This document shows, one piece after another, positions 1,307 to 20,542 of a DNA stretch of 33,255 nt (its first letter is position 1; each line of letters begins with the position of its first letter). This DNA is from a virus (taxonomy: Duplodnaviria; Heunggongvirae; Uroviricota; Caudoviricetes). The notes under the pieces are model-generated. The model did no database searches. It had not been told where the DNA came from and was given only the letters and a program-made list of their open reading frames with translations. Made by a program: the position numbers and the translations under genes. The stretch lies in the IMG/VR virus record IMGVR_UViG_2737471834_000009. One strand, 5' to 3'.

Positions 1307-3748
1307 TTAAAAATCAACCGGATTCGGGATCAGTTTTTGCCAGATAGCTGAAACGTATTTTGCCTGGTAACGAGCGTCATCAAGTGCATTATGGCGCTCA
1401 CCTTCGAATGGAATAGCCGTTCTGGCATCGAAGTCTATGGCTTTCCCCAGCTCAACGATTGTGCGTACATCGCGATCGTTGTAGTAACGCCACGGGCAGG
1501 GGATCCCCTGCCGTTCGTATGAACGGCGCAAAATCGTGTTGTCGAAGTTGGCTCCATTTCCCCAGACCTGAACAAAAAATTCACCGGAGTTTTCGTCGAT
1601 AAATTCCCGCAATTGTAACAGTGCATCATCTAACGGGATTTCATCGGTCATAATGGCAGATTGCGCTTCGCGTGATTGCTTAAGCCACCATTTAATGGTG
1701 TCCCGATCAATGACTCCGCCAGCAGTTTCCAGATCGATAGTCTTACTAAATTCCGGTCCCATATCTCCGGTTTGCGGATCGAAAAATATTGCACCTATTG
1801 AGATGATCGGGGCATCAGGATTTTTTCCCATGGTTTCAAGGTCGATCATTAGATGGTCACACGTCCTGCTGGTGGATGTGATTTCGTGATGACCGTTCAC
1901 CTTAATTGAGTGATCTGCCGTCTCGCCAGTTTTATTATCGCTGGCGTGATGCTGATTGCCGCCAGGGTTCTCCTTGTGTGGATGTTCAGCGCCTTCCATT
2001 TCCTCCGGATCATTTTCCTGAACTTCAACCTGATTCTCTTCATCGAATGTTTCCTGGTATGTTGCGTCGCCCATCACCGCGCCACAATCAGGGCAGTTGC
2101 CGCCACCGCTCTGACCGCAGGCGGTGCAGACTTTTTCCGGTTCCTGTTGCGCTACTGGTTCGGATTGTTTCGTTTCTGGCTCGTTTTGTAACGCATTTGG
2201 GCTGTTTTGTTCCGCTTTTTGGTCGTTCCGTTCCGATTCATGCTGGTTCTGGTTCACAGAATCGCGAGTCTGGATCCCCTTGACCCATTTCGGATCATTA
2301 GGGTCGCTAATCCCCTCAACAAATTCACCACGCGATACAGCAAGTAACTTATCGGCGTCAGGCTGGCTGATATTGGCTGCCTGCATAATTTTGTTTACTT
2401 CGTCAGCGGTGACTTTTACTTGGTTAGCGGAACTCACCTGCGACTGAGCATCCAGCGACTGCGCGTTCTGGCCATGTTCAGTTGTATCCGGTTCCATTGT
2501 TTCAGTTGTTGCCTGTTCACCTGCCATTGCGTCAGATGGTTGTGGTTTTTCTTCTTCTGTTTCACGCTCAGTAACCACCTCGCGGTTAATTTCTTCCAGG
2601 ATATCTTTTTCCGGCGTATGCCGGGCAGCTGTGAGAGTTTCCTTGCTGGGGTTCTCGTGATCAGTTTCCGTCAAATAGGCGTTGATATACCCCTGAAGGC
2701 GTCCCGGGTAGTGATAAAATTCAGGGTGTGCGCTTCGGATAAGTGCAAAAATAGCGGCGCGGGAATAGTCCAGAATACCCGGGGTTGCACGAAGTGCTGC
2801 GGACCATTCTTTGAACGGACTTTCTTTGTTCAGGACTACTTCTTTTGCGCGACGATAAACGCTGCCCGGAATTTCATAAATATTAAAATCCATCGGAAGT
2901 GTGGCTGCTGCAATCTCCACATCCAGTGTGTCGAGGGTGTGTACTAAATTCGGATTGCGATCGGTTTTGTTCCCACCGCCAGCATTAGCACCGGAAGCCG
3001 TGCGGGTGATGCGTGAAACACGATTTCCTTTCATCCACTCTTTTGTCAGCAGGCCGCGATCGGTGTAGTCAGCGTCCAGGTATGCTTCGAAAAAAGCAGT
3101 CATTAATCCCAGACTGGAATTAACGGGATTAGGGAAAACTTTGTCAGTGTCGCGAACCAGTTTGTGGAGGTCGCGAAGTTCCAGTGGGTCGAGCAGGCTG
3201 GTTTTGTGCGAAATAGCCAGGGCAGTAACTGCCGGTAGCTCTTCAGCCCGAGCGATATGTAATGCCTGAAGTTCATCTCTTGAAACGTGTGTTACTGGTT
3301 TTTCGCTGCCGTGTTGAGCAAGCCAACGGATAGCCACCTCCTGACCGGAAACTGGCAGGAGCATGCTCTCCTCAATCTCCGTCATGTCTTCGCCGTTAAC
3401 ATTGGTATTTTCGGTGCTGGCTGGTTTGTTCTGCACAGAGGGAGATGGCGCGGTGAATACCATTGTGATGCCATCTTCACCGCCTTTTTCATAGCGGTTA
3501 CAGAATTCGGTATCAAACACGCCTTCTGGTGGAAGGTCATTCACAACAGGCAAATGGACGCGAACAGGTTTTTTAAAGTCCTCTTCGTCGTAACCAGCAT
3601 CATCCATTGCGACATTACCGCGGGAAACTGCAACAGATAATTTTTTTGCTGTAGTCCAGTAAAAACCGCCTTTAATACCGAGACGTTTTCTGACTTTGTC
3701 ATTTTTGGCTTCGTAATGGAGTGCAATGTCTTGTTTGTCAGTGCTCAT
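1307..3748 (-). CDS. large exonuclease-like protein with C-terminal DnaQ-like (DEDDh) 3'-5' exonuclease domain
   Basis: C-terminus has motifs DLETMG, WGNGANFD and HNALDDARY typical of DEDD exonucleases; central CxxC...CxxC (CTACGQSGGGNCPDCG); long acidic Q/E-rich linker; RBS GAGG before ATG at 3748. Confidence 0.7.
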   Translation of the reverse strand: MSTDKQDIALHYEAKNDKVRKRLGIKGGFYWTTAKKLSVAVSRGNVAMDDAGYDEEDFKKPVRVHLPVVNDLPPEGVFDTEFCNRYEKGGEDGITMVFTAPSPSVQNKPASTENTNVNGEDMTEIEESMLLPVSGQEVAIRWLAQHGSEKPVTHVSRDELQALHIARAEELPAVTALAISHKTSLLDPLELRDLHKLVRDTDKVFPNPVNSSLGLMTAFFEAYLDADYTDRGLLTKEWMKGNRVSRITRTASGANAGGGNKTDRNPNLVHTLDTLDVEIAAATLPMDFNIYEIPGSVYRRAKEVVLNKESPFKEWSAALRATPGILDYSRAAIFALIRSAHPEFYHYPGRLQGYINAYLTETDHENPSKETLTAARHTPEKDILEEINREVVTERETEEEKPQPSDAMAGEQATTETMEPDTTEHGQNAQSLDAQSQVSSANQVKVTADEVNKIMQAANISQPDADKLLAVSRGEFVEGISDPNDPKWVKGIQTRDSVNQNQHESERNDQKAEQNSPNALQNEPETKQSEPVAQQEPEKVCTACGQSGGGNCPDCGAVMGDATYQETFDEENQVEVQENDPEEMEGAEHPHKENPGGNQHHASDNKTGETADHSIKVNGHHEITSTSRTCDHLMIDLETMGKNPDAPIISIGAIFFDPQTGDMGPEFSKTIDLETAGGVIDRDTIKWWLKQSREAQSAIMTDEIPLDDALLQLREFIDENSGEFFVQVWGNGANFDNTILRRSYERQGIPCPWRYYNDRDVRTIVELGKAIDFDARTAIPFEGERHNALDDARYQAKYVSAIWQKLIPNPVDF

Positions 3749-4753: not shown

Positions 4754-4811
4754 AAAAAGGGCGGCAGAGCAGTCACGGAGTAAAACTGATACCGCCAAAC
4801 GTCACCAGAAA
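4754..4811 (-). ncRNA. dicF: DicF small RNA (ftsZ-targeting sRNA) with intrinsic terminator
   Basis: Minus-strand sequence TTTCTGGTGACGTTTGGCGGTATCAGTTTTACTCCGTGACTGCTCTGCCGCCC followed by a T-run; GGCGG...CCGCC terminator hairpin; located between ydfC and dicB as in the Qin prophage. Confidence 0.8.
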
Positions 4812-13358: not shown

Positions 13359-13639
13359 GAAGGAAACAAAACAGAAACAACAATTGCCGTTACCTGTTGT
13401 TACCATGGCAAGTAAACGTATCTCAGGCGAGCGCATTGCGCCGTTCTGACGCAGATAAATTAGCCTGGATAGAAGGTGCTGGCAATAAAAAATAGCGTTT
13501 TCTTATCGGTGTCGGTAAGATTGCTGCGGGTGCTTGAGGCTGTCTGCCTCAGGCATGCCACTGTAAGGCAGACAGAGAAAAGCCCCAGTTAACATTATGC
13601 GTCCGGCAAGACGCTTAACATTAATCTGAGGCTCAATCT

Positions 13640-13852
13640 ATGAACGGCAAATCTAGGTTAGCCTCTTACGCGCCGAAAGGCAAGGAGAAGCAGGCTATGA
13701 AGCAGCAAAAGGCGATGTTAGTCGCCCTGATCGTCATCTGTATTACCGTCATTGTGACGGCACTGGTAACGAGGAAAGACCTCTGCGAGGTACGAATCCG
13801 AACCGGCCAGACGGAGGTCACTGTCTTCACAGCTTACGAACCTGAGGAGTAA
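13640..13852 (+). CDS. Mok-like reading frame (in-frame N-terminal extension of Hok)
   Basis: 70-aa ORF containing the hok frame, as in chromosomal mok/hok loci. Confidence 0.55.
   Translation: MNGKSRLASYAPKGKEKQAMKQQKAMLVALIVICITVIVTALVTRKDLCEVRIRTGQTEVTVFTAYEPEE
13697..13852 (+). CDS. hok: Hok/Gef family type I toxin
   Basis: 51-aa product MKQQKAMLVALIVICITVIVTALVTRKDLCEVRIRTGQTEVTVFTAYEPEE is near-identical to remembered HokD/RelF; mRNA leader has the tac-like hairpin GCTTGAGGCTGTCTGCCTCAGG. Confidence 0.85.
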   Translation: MKQQKAMLVALIVICITVIVTALVTRKDLCEVRIRTGQTEVTVFTAYEPEE

Positions 13853-16389: not shown

Positions 16390-17075
16390 ATAACCAGTAT
16401 TTACAGTTTGTGCGTGAGCAGCTCATTATCGCCACCGCTGATTTGAGTGGGGCAACAAAAGGTCAGCTTGAAGCCTGGCAGGAGAATGCCATGTTCGATA
16501 CAGGGCGTTACAGGCGTAAAAAAATCCGGTACCGAGATGAAGTGACCGGAAAAATGATTACGCGGGATAATCCACCAATCCCGGGAAAACAATCACTGGT
16601 GAAAGGCTCATCAATTGCCCTGGTCAGCCCGGTTGAGTTTTCGACATCATCGTGGCGGCGGGCTGTTTTGTCTCTTGAAGAACATCATAAAGCCTGGTTG
16701 TTGTGGAGTTACAGCGGGAGTATTTGTTGGGAATATCAGATCGCGATAACACAGTGGGCGTGGAATGAATTTAATACTCAATCAGGTACCAGAAAAATTG
16801 CAGGGAAAACGCAGGAACGCCTGAAAAAATTAATCTGGCTGGCGGCGCAGGCAGTAAAAGCAGAACTTTTTGGTGGGGAAGGTTATGAATACCAGGAGCT
16901 GGCATTACTGGCGGGAGTGACAACTAAAAACTGGTCCAAAACATTTACTCGTCACTGGGTTGCAATGAAACACATTTTTCAACGACTGGATAGTGAGGCT
17001 TTATTGTTTGTAATGAGAACACGTTCAAAACAAAAGGCGGCATTTTCAAAGCAAAGTGTTGCAAAAGTAGATTGA
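16386..17075 (+). CDS. late gene antiterminator Q-like protein
   Basis: About 230 aa, immediately upstream of a promoter and short terminated transcript and then the lysis genes; start overlaps rusA stop. Confidence 0.7.
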   Translation: MNNQYLQFVREQLIIATADLSGATKGQLEAWQENAMFDTGRYRRKKIRYRDEVTGKMITRDNPPIPGKQSLVKGSSIALVSPVEFSTSSWRRAVLSLEEHHKAWLLWSYSGSICWEYQIAITQWAWNEFNTQSGTRKIAGKTQERLKKLIWLAAQAVKAELFGGEGYEYQELALLAGVTTKNWSKTFTRHWVAMKHIFQRLDSEALLFVMRTRSKQKAAFSKQSVAKVD

Positions 17076-17087
17076 AAGGCATATATT
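17059..17087 (+). promoter_or_regulatory. putative late promoter pR'-like
   Basis: -35 TTGCAA (17059-17064), 17-bp spacer, -10 TATATT (17082-17087), overlapping the 3' end of Q. Confidence 0.5.
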
Positions 17088-17141
17088 TCATGCAAATCTG
17101 ATATTTTGCCGATTTTGTACGTGATGGCAAAAGCAAACAAA

Positions 17142-17165
17142 ACCCGCCCACAAGCGGGTTTTTTT
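17142..17165 (+). terminator. intrinsic terminator tR'-like
   Basis: CCCGC-CCACAA-GCGGG followed by T7, about 55 nt downstream of the predicted pR' start site. Confidence 0.7.
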
Positions 17166-17247
17166 GTGCCACTTATCTCGGATAGAAATGGTGAATGCGC
17201 TGGTGGAGGAGCTAAGGGTGATTTTTAACCAGGTGATTTTTGAATGC

Positions 17248-17285: not shown

Positions 17286-17361
17286 GGCCCTTTAGCTCAG
17301 TGGTGAGAGCGAGCGACTCATAATCGCCAGGTCGCTGGTTCAAATCCAGCAAGGGCCACCA
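17286..17361 (+). tRNA. tRNA, anticodon CAU (ileX/ileZ-like tRNA-Ile2; tRNA-Met not excluded)
   Basis: Manual cloverleaf: acceptor GGCCCTT/AAGGGCC, anticodon loop CTCATAA, T-loop TTCAAAT, CCA encoded; close to remembered ileX. Confidence 0.8.
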
Positions 17362-17362
17362 A

Positions 17363-17439
17363 CCGCCACTAGCTCATCAGGAAAGAGCGTCAACCCTTTA
17401 AGTTGAGTGTGCGAGGTTCGAGTCCCCGGTGGCGGTCCA
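17363..17439 (+). tRNA. atypical tRNA, anticodon loop CCTTTAA (anticodon UUU, Lys-like, with C at position 33)
   Basis: Manual cloverleaf: acceptor CCGCCAC/GTGGCGG (C1-G72), D-loop with GG, T-loop TTCGAGT, CCA encoded; isotype uncertain. Confidence 0.55.
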
Positions 17440-17441
17440 GT

Positions 17442-17517
<76 letters not shown>

Positions 17518-17520
17518 TAT

Positions 17521-17595
<75 letters not shown>

Positions 17596-17801: not shown

Positions 17802-17826
17802 CGCCCGCTTTTGCGGGTTTTTCTTT
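17802..17826 (+). terminator. intrinsic terminator-like hairpin upstream of the lysis cassette
   Basis: CGCCCGC-TTTT-GCGGG followed by a T-run. Confidence 0.55.
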
Positions 17827-17887
17827 TCAAATCCCTTTCATTTCTCAGTGTAAAACTACGCCATCCGTTATTTGCGGAGGTGAGGCT

Positions 17888-18103
17888 ATGAAATCCATGG
17901 ACAAAATTTCAACGGGCATTGCCTATGGCACCTCCGCAGGCAGTGCTGGCTACTGGTTTTTACAGTGGCTTGATCAGGTCAGTCCGTCACAGTGGGCTGC
18001 GATTGGTGTGCTGGGGAGTCTGGTTCTGGGCTTCCTGACTTATCTGACAAATCTGTACTTCAAAATCAGAGAAGACAAGCGTAAGGCTGCACGGGGAGAG
18101 TAA
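17888..18103 (+). CDS. class II holin (phage 21 S-type pinholin) with dual-start motif
   Basis: 71-aa product [28 protein letters not shown]...; two TM segments; Met1/Met4 dual start. Confidence 0.9.
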
Positions 18104-18107
18104 TTCA

Positions 18108-18458
18108 ATGACTCAAAACTATGAACTGATTGTGAAAGGGATCCGCAATTTTGAGAATAAAGTTACGGTAACTTTAGCGTTACGGGACAAAAAACGCTTT
18201 GACGGTGAAATTTTTGACCTGGACATCTCGCTGGACCGTGTTGAAGGTGCCGCGCTGGAGTTTTATGAGGCAGCAGCCAGAAGGAGCATCAGACAGGTCT
18301 TCCTGGATGTTGCTGCCGGGTTATGTGAAGGGGATGAGCAGTCGCCGGAAAAGCGCCCCGTAATTTTAGATGCGCAGAATGTGTGGATAACCTACAAAGG
18401 AAAGCTACCAGGAAGAATTACTGGTTCTCTGAAGACTCCTCCGGAATCACAACCTTAA
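18108..18458 (+). CDS. hypothetical protein between holin and endolysin (YdfR-like position)
   Basis: 116-aa soluble ORF; the same position in the Qin prophage is occupied by ydfR. Confidence 0.55.
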   Translation: MTQNYELIVKGIRNFENKVTVTLALRDKKRFDGEIFDLDISLDRVEGAALEFYEAAARRSIRQVFLDVAAGLCEGDEQSPEKRPVILDAQNVWITYKGKLPGRITGSLKTPPESQP

Positions 18459-18521
18459 GTCACTGACCGGAACAGATAAACCTGTCCGTGGGCAGAAACC
18501 GATAAATCCTGATAAATATCC

Positions 18522-19055
18522 ATGAACGCAAAAATCAGATACGGCCTGTCGGCTGCCGTTCTGACACTGATTGCCGTCGGTGCGCCCGCGCCTGATATTC
18601 TCGACCAGTTTCTGGATGAAAAAGAGGGTAACCACACAACGGCATACCGCGATGGGTCCGGCATCTGGACCATCTGTCGGGGTGCCACGATGGTGGATGG
18701 AAAACCCGTTTTTCCCGGTATGAAACTGTCGAAGGAAAAATGCGACCAGGTCAACGCCATTGAGCGTGATAAGGCGCTGGCATGGGTGGAGCGCAATATT
18801 AAAGTACCACTGACCGAACCACAAAAAGCGGGTATCGCGTCATTTTGTCCCTATAACATTGGCCCCGGTAAGTGTTTTCCGTCGACGTTTTATAAGCGGC
18901 TGAATGCCGGTGATCGTAAGGGCGCATGCGAGGCGATTCGCTGGTGGATAAAAGATGGTGGGCGCGATTGCCGCATACGTTCAAATAACTGCTATGGACA
19001 GGTTATTCGTCGTGACCAGGAAAGCGCATTAGCCTGTTGGGGGATAGATCAGTGA
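18522..19055 (+). CDS. SAR endolysin (lysozyme, phage 21 R / P1 Lyz type)
   Basis: N-terminal signal-anchor-release segment ([17 protein letters not shown]) and lysozyme catalytic region (E-x8-D-x5-T: [16 protein letters not shown]). Confidence 0.9.
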
Positions 19056-19519
19056 GCAGAGTCGCCGCGATTATTTATGCTCTGGTTATCTGCATCATCG
19101 TCTGCCTGTCGTGGGCGGTCAATCATTACCGTGATAACGCCATCGCCTACAAAGAACAGCGTGATAAAAAAGTCAGTGAGCTGAAGCTGGCGATCGCCAC
19201 CATCGCTGACATGCAGCAGCGTCAGCGTGATGTTGCTGCGCTCGATGCAAAGTACTCGAGAGAATTAGCCAATGCGCAAGCTGAAAATGAAACTCTGCGC
19301 GCTGATGTTGCCGCTGGCCGTAAGCGCCTGCGGGTCAATGCCAGTTGCTCCGCAGCCGTGCGTGAAGCCACCGGACCCACCAGCGTGGATAATGCAACCA
19401 TCCCCCGACTGGCAGACACCGCTGAACGGGATTATTTCACCCTCAGAGACCGATTGATGACGATGCAGATGCAACTGGAAGGGGCGCAGGAATATATCCG
19501 CACTCAGTGCATTAAGTAG
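19052..19519 (+). CDS. Rz: i-spanin Rz
   Basis: GTG start overlapping the endolysin stop; N-terminal TM followed by coiled-coil; product [31 protein letters not shown]... Confidence 0.85.
19272..19457 (+). CDS. Rz1: o-spanin Rz1 (lipoprotein), embedded in the +1 frame of Rz
   Basis: Lipobox LAVSAC, proline-rich mature region ([21 protein letters not shown]); entirely within Rz. Confidence 0.8.
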
Positions 19520-19561: not shown

Positions 19562-19912
19562 ATGCCATCACGAATCCCACGCGCCTGCCGTAAGCGTGGA
19601 TGTGCAGGTACAACCACAGACAGTTCTGGTTACTGCGATAAACATCGTGGCGAAGGATGGGTACAGCATCAACGCGGACTGAGCCGCCACCAGCGTGGCT
19701 ATGGCTCGAAATGGGATGCCATACGTGCGCGCATACTGAAGCGTGATAATCATCTGTGTCAGAACTGCCTGCGCAATGGGAGAGCCGTTGAAGCCAGAAC
19801 TGTGGACCACATCATTCCGAAAGCTCATGGTGGCACGGATGCAGACAGTAACCTGCAGAGTCTGTGCTGGCCCTGTCATAAAGCAAAAACAGCGCGCGAA
19901 CGCATCAATTGA
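19562..19912 (+). CDS. HNH endonuclease (terminase-associated)
   Basis: CxxC...H-N-H...CxxCH motifs (CQNCLRNG...DHIIPKAHGGTDADSNLQSLCWPCHKAK); directly upstream of the terminase genes. Confidence 0.85.
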   Translation: MPSRIPRACRKRGCAGTTTDSSGYCDKHRGEGWVQHQRGLSRHQRGYGSKWDAIRARILKRDNHLCQNCLRNGRAVEARTVDHIIPKAHGGTDADSNLQSLCWPCHKAKTARERIN

Positions 19913-20059: not shown

Positions 20060-20542
20060 ATGTCTGGACCCCCGAAAACCCCGCCACGCCTGCATTTGAT
20101 ACGAGGCAACCCCTCAAAGCGCCCCGTTAAAGACTCAAAAAAAACCGCTAAAAAGGATGAAAAAGGTCTCCCTAAAATTCCGCAACATTTAGGGGCGCAG
20201 GGGAAGTACTGGTTCAGGCGAATGGCAGAAGAACTGAATGCGGAAGGGATCATTTCTCAGCTTGATGCGCGTGCACTCGAGTTACTGGTGGAAGCCTACA
20301 CCGAATACCGGCATCACTGCGAAACCCTCGATGTTGAGGGATATACCTACCGCACGGAAACGCAGAACGGTGATGTGCTGATTAAGGCACACCCCGCGGC
20401 GGCAATGAAAGCGGATGCCTGGAAGAGGATCAGGGCGATGCTTGCAGAGTTTGGCATGTCACCGGCAAGCCGGGCTAAAGTAAATATCGCCGGACCTGAT
20501 GATGTCGATCCGCTGGCGGAGCTTTTAAAAGCGAGAGACTGA
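20060..20542 (+). CDS. terminase small subunit (P27/HK97 gp1-like family)
   Basis: 160-aa basic N-terminus; immediately precedes and overlaps the terminase large subunit (TGATG). Confidence 0.75.
   Translation: MSGPPKTPPRLHLIRGNPSKRPVKDSKKTAKKDEKGLPKIPQHLGAQGKYWFRRMAEELNAEGIISQLDARALELLVEAYTEYRHHCETLDVEGYTYRTETQNGDVLIKAHPAAAMKADAWKRIRAMLAEFGMSPASRAKVNIAGPDDVDPLAELLKARD

Follow-up and report, generated by a model that had tools for sequence, protein, structure and literature searches.

A ydfR-family gene in a Qin-type pinholin, SAR-lysozyme and spanin lysis cassette of a lambdoid prophage

Introduction

The lysis cassette of the lambdoid phage 21 has the gene order S21-R21-Rz-Rz1, in which the lysozyme gene R21 abuts the pinholin gene S and uses a ribosome-binding site embedded in S, Rz1 is embedded in Rz, and the gene ydfR is absent. 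In the Qin prophage of Escherichia coli K-12, the corresponding order is essQ-ydfR-rrrQ-rzpQ/rzoQ, with ydfR standing between the holin gene and the gene of a signal-anchor-release (SAR) lysozyme. Phage 933W and other Shiga toxin (Stx) phages combine an S21-type holin with an RrrQ-type lysozyme, and ydfR occupies the same junction in Stx2-86, Stx1 and Stx2c phages but is missing from 933W. In the current study, we analyzed a stretch of 33,255 nucleotides from a virus of the Caudoviricetes (IMG/VR record IMGVR_UViG_2737471834_000009), referred to here as the window, which carries a ydfR-family gene within the lysis cassette at positions 17888-19519.

Small non-enzymatic proteins encoded beside a holin or a SAR endolysin are known from several phages, namely T4 RIII, P1 LydB and the Mu gp25 releasin, and T4 Srd, T7 gp0.7 and phiKZ Dip are phage-encoded modulators of RNase E. 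The Mu gp25 releasin has been covered in previous work (PMC9239132). EcoCyc-style reviews still class ydfR as uncharacterised, and the literature searched on ydfR, DUF1327, b1555 and Qin/pinholin contained no lysis study of ydfR, which agrees with an initial annotation of the window, made from the sequence without database searches, in which the inserted gene had been given no known role in lysis.

Results

Identity of the inserted gene

Based on its sequence, we classify region 17888-19519 as a lambdoid lysis cassette with pinholin, SAR-lysozyme and spanins, in its Qin-type variant. The holin-ydfR-lysozyme arrangement is already known and annotated, and the window adds one more copy of it. 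Many E. coli chromosomes match the 2-kb cassette at 99.5-100% identity; in these, the inserted gene is called 'YdfR family protein' by RefSeq, and induced-prophage records also carry this label. The ORF listing and our reading of the sequence placed all of the open reading frames (ORFs) of this region where the initial annotation had put them.

Between the holin and the endolysin we recovered the 116-aa soluble ORF that had been described there (18108..18458, +). It begins 4 nt past the S stop codon, as in K-12 Qin, so that its proposed correspondence to the ydfR position of Qin holds. The hidden Markov model (HMM) search that had been suggested for its product assigned it to DUF1327/YdfR (PF07041; E 1.4e-42, 144.3 bits against a gathering cut-off of 25), a family without known function, and it is 81% identical to K-12 YdfR across residues 1-74. 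The protein has no hydrophobic segment, the maximum Kyte-Doolittle value over a 15-residue window being 0.91, and neither a transmembrane domain (TMD) nor a signal peptide was found in it. The PHROG matches of YdfR (phrog_2091, 406, 1085, 2735 and 34145) are all of unknown function, with no match to a lysis-category PHROG at E <= 0.1 and none to an NCBIfam model. A search of the YdfR sequence against all PDB chains at E <= 10 gave nothing, fold searches gave no informative relative, and the PADLOC defence-system models matched neither the YdfR of the window nor four longer family members.

Residues 1-72 constitute a conserved N-terminal domain (N-domain), in which the motif R-x-EGA-x-LEFYE is strongly kept. 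AlphaFold2, supplied with a 30-sequence alignment, predicted three beta-strands and a long helix for this domain, with a predicted local distance difference test (pLDDT) score of 64-84, while residues 69-116 were modeled without confidence (tail pLDDT <50). Nei-Gojobori ratios of nonsynonymous to synonymous substitution (dN/dS) for the N-domain were 0.2-0.4 between diverged alleles, from which we conclude that ydfR is a real, constrained gene; between close alleles, the ratio reached values up to ~1. The gene was intact in 80 of 80 IMG/VR loci. The copy in the window is likewise intact and holds an A6 run at 18189-18194. The nearest chromosome match, NZ_CP101920, has A7 in an otherwise identical ydfR and is annotated there as a frameshifted pseudogene, a difference that could be due to a slippage hotspot or to a sequencing error in the NZ_CP101920 assembly.

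Modular structure of YdfR

The remainder of the window protein, residues 73-116, is a swappable tail that we refer to as module B. YdfR products of 103, 104, 114, 116, 129, 169, 176, 183, 206, 263-268 and 287 aa were found, in keeping with exchangeable C-terminal modules, and the family falls into 313 clusters at 90% identity. The tails of the K-12 Qin protein (103 aa) and of the window protein (116 aa) are unrelated. When the ydfR genes of the window and of Stx2-86 are compared, the N-domain shows 60% nucleotide identity, whereas the next 40 codons show 89%, which points to an intragenic mosaic breakpoint near codon 72. The mosaic structure within ydfR is a small new point of this study. Selection was considered as the cause of the protein conservation of module B and rejected, since the same nucleotide identities (89% against 60%) indicate mostly recent recombination instead.

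The YdfR proteins of Stx phages are long-tailed (263-268 aa) and form a divergent N-domain class (50-54% identical to the window), and R is preceded by additional ORFs in their cassettes. C-terminal modules, such as a coiled-coil-like extension and the 268-aa form, were seen to be swapped between N-domain classes (the window compared with loci L011, L089 and L095). Where Stx-type phages have a ydfR cassette with a long spacer, ydfR and R are separated by a GC-rich hairpin and a small ORF on the reverse strand (3317-3631, -, in L011 and 2958-3218, -, in L012), one of these ORFs being annotated as DUF1823. The reverse-strand ORF is a second accessory insertion inside the lysis cassette.

Ribosome-binding site at the holin junction

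The last codons of S hold a Shine-Dalgarno (SD) sequence, GGGGAGAG (18093-18100), with a predicted anti-SD duplex energy of -8.1 kcal/mol. The sites compared were positions 18093-18110 and 18507-18524 of the window, 2700-2725 of locus L015 and 2706-2716 of locus L097. In phage 21 and 933W, where R abuts S, GGGGAGAG is the SD of R, while in the ydfR cassettes it is the SD of ydfR.

In the window, a spacer with the lysozyme leader, 63 nt in total (18459..18521, +), separates ydfR from R, as judged from the alignment of R-upstream sequences and from anti-SD duplex energies. R has a ATAAATATCC leader, and an A/U-rich ATAAATATC(C/T) stretch lies immediately 5' of the R ATG in the ydfR-bearing cassettes. 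The last 15 nt before R, TCCTGATAAATATCC (18507-18521), are kept in the sampled 116-, 114-, 183- and 268-aa alleles; at the K-12-, mEp460- and L009-type junctions, only the R-proximal ~10-13 nt of the leader recur. We found no SD match in the sampled R-proximal leader sequences across junction types, and no strong SD for R in any ydfR cassette examined (0 kcal/mol in each of the three alleles whose full leader was scored). In K-12, R has a distal SD site of -2.8 kcal/mol, and the ydfR stop overlaps the R start. The R AUG is placed in an open loop of the predicted spacer RNA, and no significant structure that could be regulatory was found in the RNA between ydfR and R (z = -0.68). The capture of the S-embedded SD by ydfR, leaving R SD-less, is a second small new point.

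Distribution and synteny of ydfR

Of 5426 complete E. coli genomes, 4348 (~80%) contain DNA of the ydfR N-domain, in up to 10 places per genome, and among species-representative genomes the gene is restricted to Escherichia and Shigella. YdfR relatives are encoded in 101 of 50,697 phage records, all of them E. coli, Stx1a, Stx2c or Stx2 phages, and the S21-type holin occurs in 438 phage records, only 101 of which have ydfR. An exhaustive HMMER search of 1.84 billion proteins returned 65 YdfR representatives and no relative beyond the Escherichia/Shigella family except P0162, a 3128-aa G2F-repeat protein. P0162 aligned to residues 7-58 of YdfR in six stretches (E 2.4e-8, 32% identity), and we rejected it as a relative, the match being probably a chance resemblance between beta-rich segments that is driven by the repeats. 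Besides, two contigs of metagenome-assembled genomes labelled Veillonella parvula and Bacillota (L007 and L009) carry ydfR cassettes at E. coli-level identity; the presence of ydfR in these Firmicutes genomes is most likely explained by E. coli prophage DNA that contaminated the bins.

Synteny was examined in a sample of ~92 loci from GTDB genomes, IMG/VR contigs and phage records. In ~92 of 92 loci, the ydfR ATG follows the holin stop codon after 3-4 nt, and an RrrQ-type lysozyme gene (88-100% identical) follows ydfR just as consistently (~92/92), at distances from -83 to +511 nt. The same holin type occurs without ydfR in phage 21, 933W, Lambda_ev203 and the K-12 prophage DLP12, and in DLP12, phage 21 and 933W S directly abuts R (S identity of 99% for phage 21 and 76% for 933W, with 91% for the 933W R). 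Because cassettes of the same type exist without it, ydfR is accessory and not needed for lysis by a pinholin and a SAR-lysozyme. The same YdfR allele (98.6-100% identity) was found beside holin alleles of 100, 98.6, 95.8, 87.3 and 77.5% identity, which indicates that S and ydfR recombine freely. Co-divergence of S and YdfR, which would have been a sign of physical partnership, was therefore rejected, as identical YdfR alleles stand beside S alleles of 77-100% identity.

Comparison with related cassettes

The cassette in the window and that of K-12 Qin share the gene order and the 4 nt that separate the stop codon of S from the ATG of ydfR, with identities of 82% for S, 93% for the lysozyme and 81% for the YdfR N-domain. 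They differ at the other end of ydfR, where the Qin stop codon overlaps the rrrQ start and the window has its 63-nt spacer, and in the spanin, RzpQ being annotated as DUF2514 whereas Rz of the window belongs to PF03245 and is 73% identical to phage 21 Rz. On the 5' side, the Qin cassette is preceded by csp genes and that of the window by tRNA genes.

With phage 21, the window shares a nearly identical S (70/71, including the dual start), the 73% identical Rz, the embedded Rz1 and the layout of the late leader (pR', terminator, tRNAs, of which phage 21 has two, and S). The initial annotation had described the cassette as phage-21-type, a description that is borne out for the holin (99%) and Rz (73%) but not for the lysozyme, which is only 34% identical to R21 and of the RrrQ/933W type. 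The cassettes of 933W and other Stx phages resemble the window in both respects, with holin identities of 73-77% and lysozyme identities of ~91%.

Holin, lysozyme and spanins

The pinholin gene S (17888..18103, +) was identified by PF04971, by its identity to phage 21 S and by the dual-start annotation of the phage 21 record. It encodes 71 aa and matches 'Bacteriophage P21 holin S' with E 1.4e-35 and 121.5 bits against a cut-off of 26. The dual-start MKSM motif recognized earlier is present: translation from Met1 yields the antiholin form of 71 aa and translation from Met4 (17897) the holin form of 68 aa, which are annotated as S21-71 and S21-68 in phage 21. Only TMD2 reaches a Kyte-Doolittle value of >= 1.6 (windows 35-40), and TMD1 is rich in Gly, Ala and Ser. 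From the near-identity to S21, S probably shares its membrane behavior, with a weak TMD1 leaving the membrane and small holes being formed.

The lysozyme gene (18522..19055, +) encodes a GH24 enzyme of the RrrQ/933W type with a SAR-like N-terminus, as seen from PF00959 (E 1.4e-24), sequence identities, the catalytic motif E35-x8-D44-x5-T50 and hydropathy. Residues 8-26 are weakly hydrophobic, with 47% Gly/Ala/Ser/Thr and a maximum Kyte-Doolittle value of 1.99, so that the N-terminal SAR segment proposed in the initial annotation is supported at the sequence level, although this region does not align with that of R21. The lysozyme is 93% identical to K-12 RrrQ and matches the crystal-structure sequences of R21 (3HDE) and RrrD (4ZPU). 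It is predicted to be tethered to the membrane and released on depolarisation.

The i-spanin gene Rz (19052..19519, +) overlaps the R stop codon with its GTG start (GTGA) and encodes a protein with an N-terminal TMD (Kyte-Doolittle 3.2); its assignment is based on PF03245 (E 1.3e-46), the RefSeq start and hydropathy. The start is most likely GTG 19052, as in RefSeq, rather than TTG 19037. Rz1, an o-spanin lipoprotein (19272..19457, +; PF06085, E 4.7e-18), has the lipobox LAVSAC and lies wholly inside Rz in the +1 frame, as had been noted before, and the two genes (frames 2 and 0) have the features of an embedded two-component spanin pair.

Late leader and prophage context

Upstream of the cassette, a consensus scan and the sequence gave a candidate pR'-like late promoter, TTGCAA-17 nt-TATATT (17059..17087, +), with its function inferred, which overlaps the stop codon of the Q gene (end of the Q ORF, 17075). 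It is followed by a putative tR'-like intrinsic terminator (17139..17166, +), a hairpin CCCGC...GCGGG and then T7, proposed from the scan and the sequence by analogy with the phage 21 terminator; the palindrome was flagged on the minus strand, and the T7 run was seen on the plus strand. Four tRNA genes come next (17286..17595, +; CAT Met/Ile2, Lys-TTT, Thr-TGT and Gly-TCC), found with ARAGORN, Rfam and the RefSeq annotation of a near-identical prophage. The first of them is called tRNA-Met (CAT) by ARAGORN and tRNA-Ile by RefSeq for the identical gene, and the RefSeq label on a tRNA with a CAT anticodon implies the lysidine-modified Ile2 type. A second terminator-like hairpin with a T-run was detected by the consensus scan between the tRNA cluster and S, ~60 nt 5' of S (17803..17828, +). 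By the same scan, neither S itself nor the sequence preceding ydfR or R contains a promoter-like site. Because of these upstream terminators and the lack of an internal promoter-like site, ydfR would be expressed only with the Q-antiterminated late operon.

The whole window is a lambdoid prophage, with genes for an integrase, dicB/DicF, hokD/sok, replication, the Q antiterminator and lysis, followed by an HNH endonuclease gene next to that of a P27-type small terminase, by a head module of the HK97 type and by lambda-like tail genes. Rfam models located the DicF sRNA (4759-4810, -) adjoining dicB and the sok antitoxin RNA (13528-13702, +) adjoining hokD; both are Qin-like traits of the early region within an otherwise complete-looking prophage. 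The HNH endonuclease gene (19562-19912) lies directly 5' of the small terminase gene of the P27 family (20060-20542), the usual HNH-terminase layout for cos cleavage, and the HK97-type head module follows.

Discussion

All functional data on YdfR come from the K-12 orthologue. In a 2026 study, K-12 YdfR was isolated in a two-hybrid screen in which residues 1-72 suffice for the signal with Rne(1-597), and purification of Strep-YdfR brought along both Rne(1-598) and nucleic acid that resists DNase (PMC13232886). Overexpression of K-12 YdfR was not toxic and altered few transcripts (PMC13232886), and one overexpression screen lists ydfR with a three-fold increase in the minimum inhibitory concentration of streptomycin. 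The RNase E-binding region of K-12 YdfR, residues 1-72, is conserved in the window protein (81% identical).

Considering these data, we tentatively favor, with somewhat less than even confidence, the explanation that YdfR is a cytoplasmic late accessory protein whose N-domain engages a host target, with RNase E and/or RNA as the leading candidate, and that it is not part of the lysis machinery. In the proposed scheme, S would accumulate in the inner membrane, trigger and depolarise it, as suggested by its near-identity to S21; the membrane-tethered lysozyme would then be released and activated, and Rz-Rz1 would subsequently disrupt the outer membrane. Translated from the SD in the last S codons, ydfR would yield a soluble cytoplasmic late protein, which would travel with the cassette as a passenger and take no part in the lysis machinery. 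Its 72-residue beta3-alpha N-domain would most likely bind a cytoplasmic target of the host, for which RNase E, through its catalytic N-terminal half, and/or RNA is the best current candidate. YdfR would in this way modulate RNA processing or decay late in infection, and the variable C-terminal tails would give allele-specific properties. RNase E binding may be the role of YdfR during phage growth, the binding data having been obtained with the K-12 orthologue, and if the K-12 interaction holds during infection, YdfR would share its host target with T4 Srd, T7 gp0.7 and phiKZ Dip.

Several points weigh against this explanation. The link to RNase E comes from work outside phage growth, in one study of a cryptic-prophage orthologue by two-hybrid assay and copurification upon overexpression, and there Rne(1-597) was the only construct with which the full-length YdfR interacted, and few transcripts changed (PMC13232886). 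The synteny with an S21-type holin and an RrrQ-type lysozyme in ~92 of 92 loci would also fit a lysis-linked role, and the Keio ydfR deletion scored in a chlorophenol red-beta-D-galactopyranoside (CPRG) screen of envelope permeability (PMC3879167, supplement). It is conceivable, if somewhat unlikely in our estimation, that ydfR modulates the timing or the dosage of lysis specifically in pinholin and SAR-lysozyme cassettes. The protein could be a cytoplasmic factor acting on the C-terminal tail of S21 or on the lysozyme before its release, for which T4 RIII and P1 LydB are analogues in logic, or the gene could act in cis, its capture of the SD moving R to an SD-less A/U-rich leader and lowering the lysozyme-to-holin ratio. 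Such a role agrees with the fixed position of ydfR, 3-4 nt past the holin stop and ahead of the RrrQ-type lysozyme in every locus examined, with its use of the -8.1 kcal/mol SD that serves R in 933W and phage 21 while R is left SD-less, with the overlap of the K-12 ydfR stop and R start, and with the CPRG hit. However, the viable phages 21 and 933W work without ydfR using the same S21-type holin (and, for 933W, the same R type), S and ydfR alleles assort freely, YdfR has neither a lysis-category PHROG match nor a membrane segment, and its overexpression caused no growth defect (PMC13232886). We suspect that the Keio phenotype reflects polar read-through into rrrQ. The resemblance to T4 RIII, P1 LydB and Mu gp25 is a possible functional analogy only, YdfR having no sequence relationship with them and being dispensable in natural cassettes. 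A combination of the two ideas appears quite improbable to us, namely that YdfR would be a late regulator dedicated to pinholin and SAR-lysozyme cassettes and would link lysis to the RNA metabolism of the host. Bound to the catalytic half of RNase E and/or to late mRNA, it would adjust how stable the SD-less lysozyme message, itself a product of the ydfR insertion, is or how well it is translated, and would thereby set the lysozyme-to-pinholin ratio and the lysis clock.

Another explanation, which we consider unlikely, is that ydfR is a late-expressed moron for counter-defence or host takeover whose target has nothing to do with RNase E or lysis. Its place at the S/R junction would then reflect only that recombination is tolerated at this boundary and that a ribosome-binding site is already available there. 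The narrow spread of the gene (Escherichia and Shigella only, with 65 representatives in 1.84 billion proteins), its relatively fast evolution (dN/dS of 0.2-0.4, up to ~1 between close alleles), the wide shuffling of its C-terminus (103 to 287 aa, with the breakpoint at codon ~72) and the uptake of other accessory genes (ant, bor and the reverse-strand ORFs) by the same cassettes are all consistent with a moron. On the other hand, there is no positive evidence for a defence-related partner, and the PADLOC search was negative, although its library covers defence rather than anti-defence. Late-only expression would also come after most known anti-defence genes act. That ydfR is functionless filler or a decaying remnant hitch-hiking with the lysis genes seems very improbable: frameshifted or truncated copies do exist, among them the A7 allele of NZ_CP101920 and many fragmentary clusters, and the gene is dispensable in natural cassettes, but its N-domain is under purifying selection, intact copies stand in all 80 IMG/VR loci as well as in phages that are inducible or viable, and the strong ribosome-binding site and the fixed junction are maintained.

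Conclusions

The gene ydfR is among the most widespread uncharacterised prophage genes of E. coli, and it is also carried by Stx1 and Stx2c phages. The cassette in which it lies controls lysis, hence the release of toxin and virions. A defined function for ydfR, whether in the modulation of RNase E or in the tuning of lysis, would serve both phage biologists and those who study Shiga toxin-producing E. coli (STEC).

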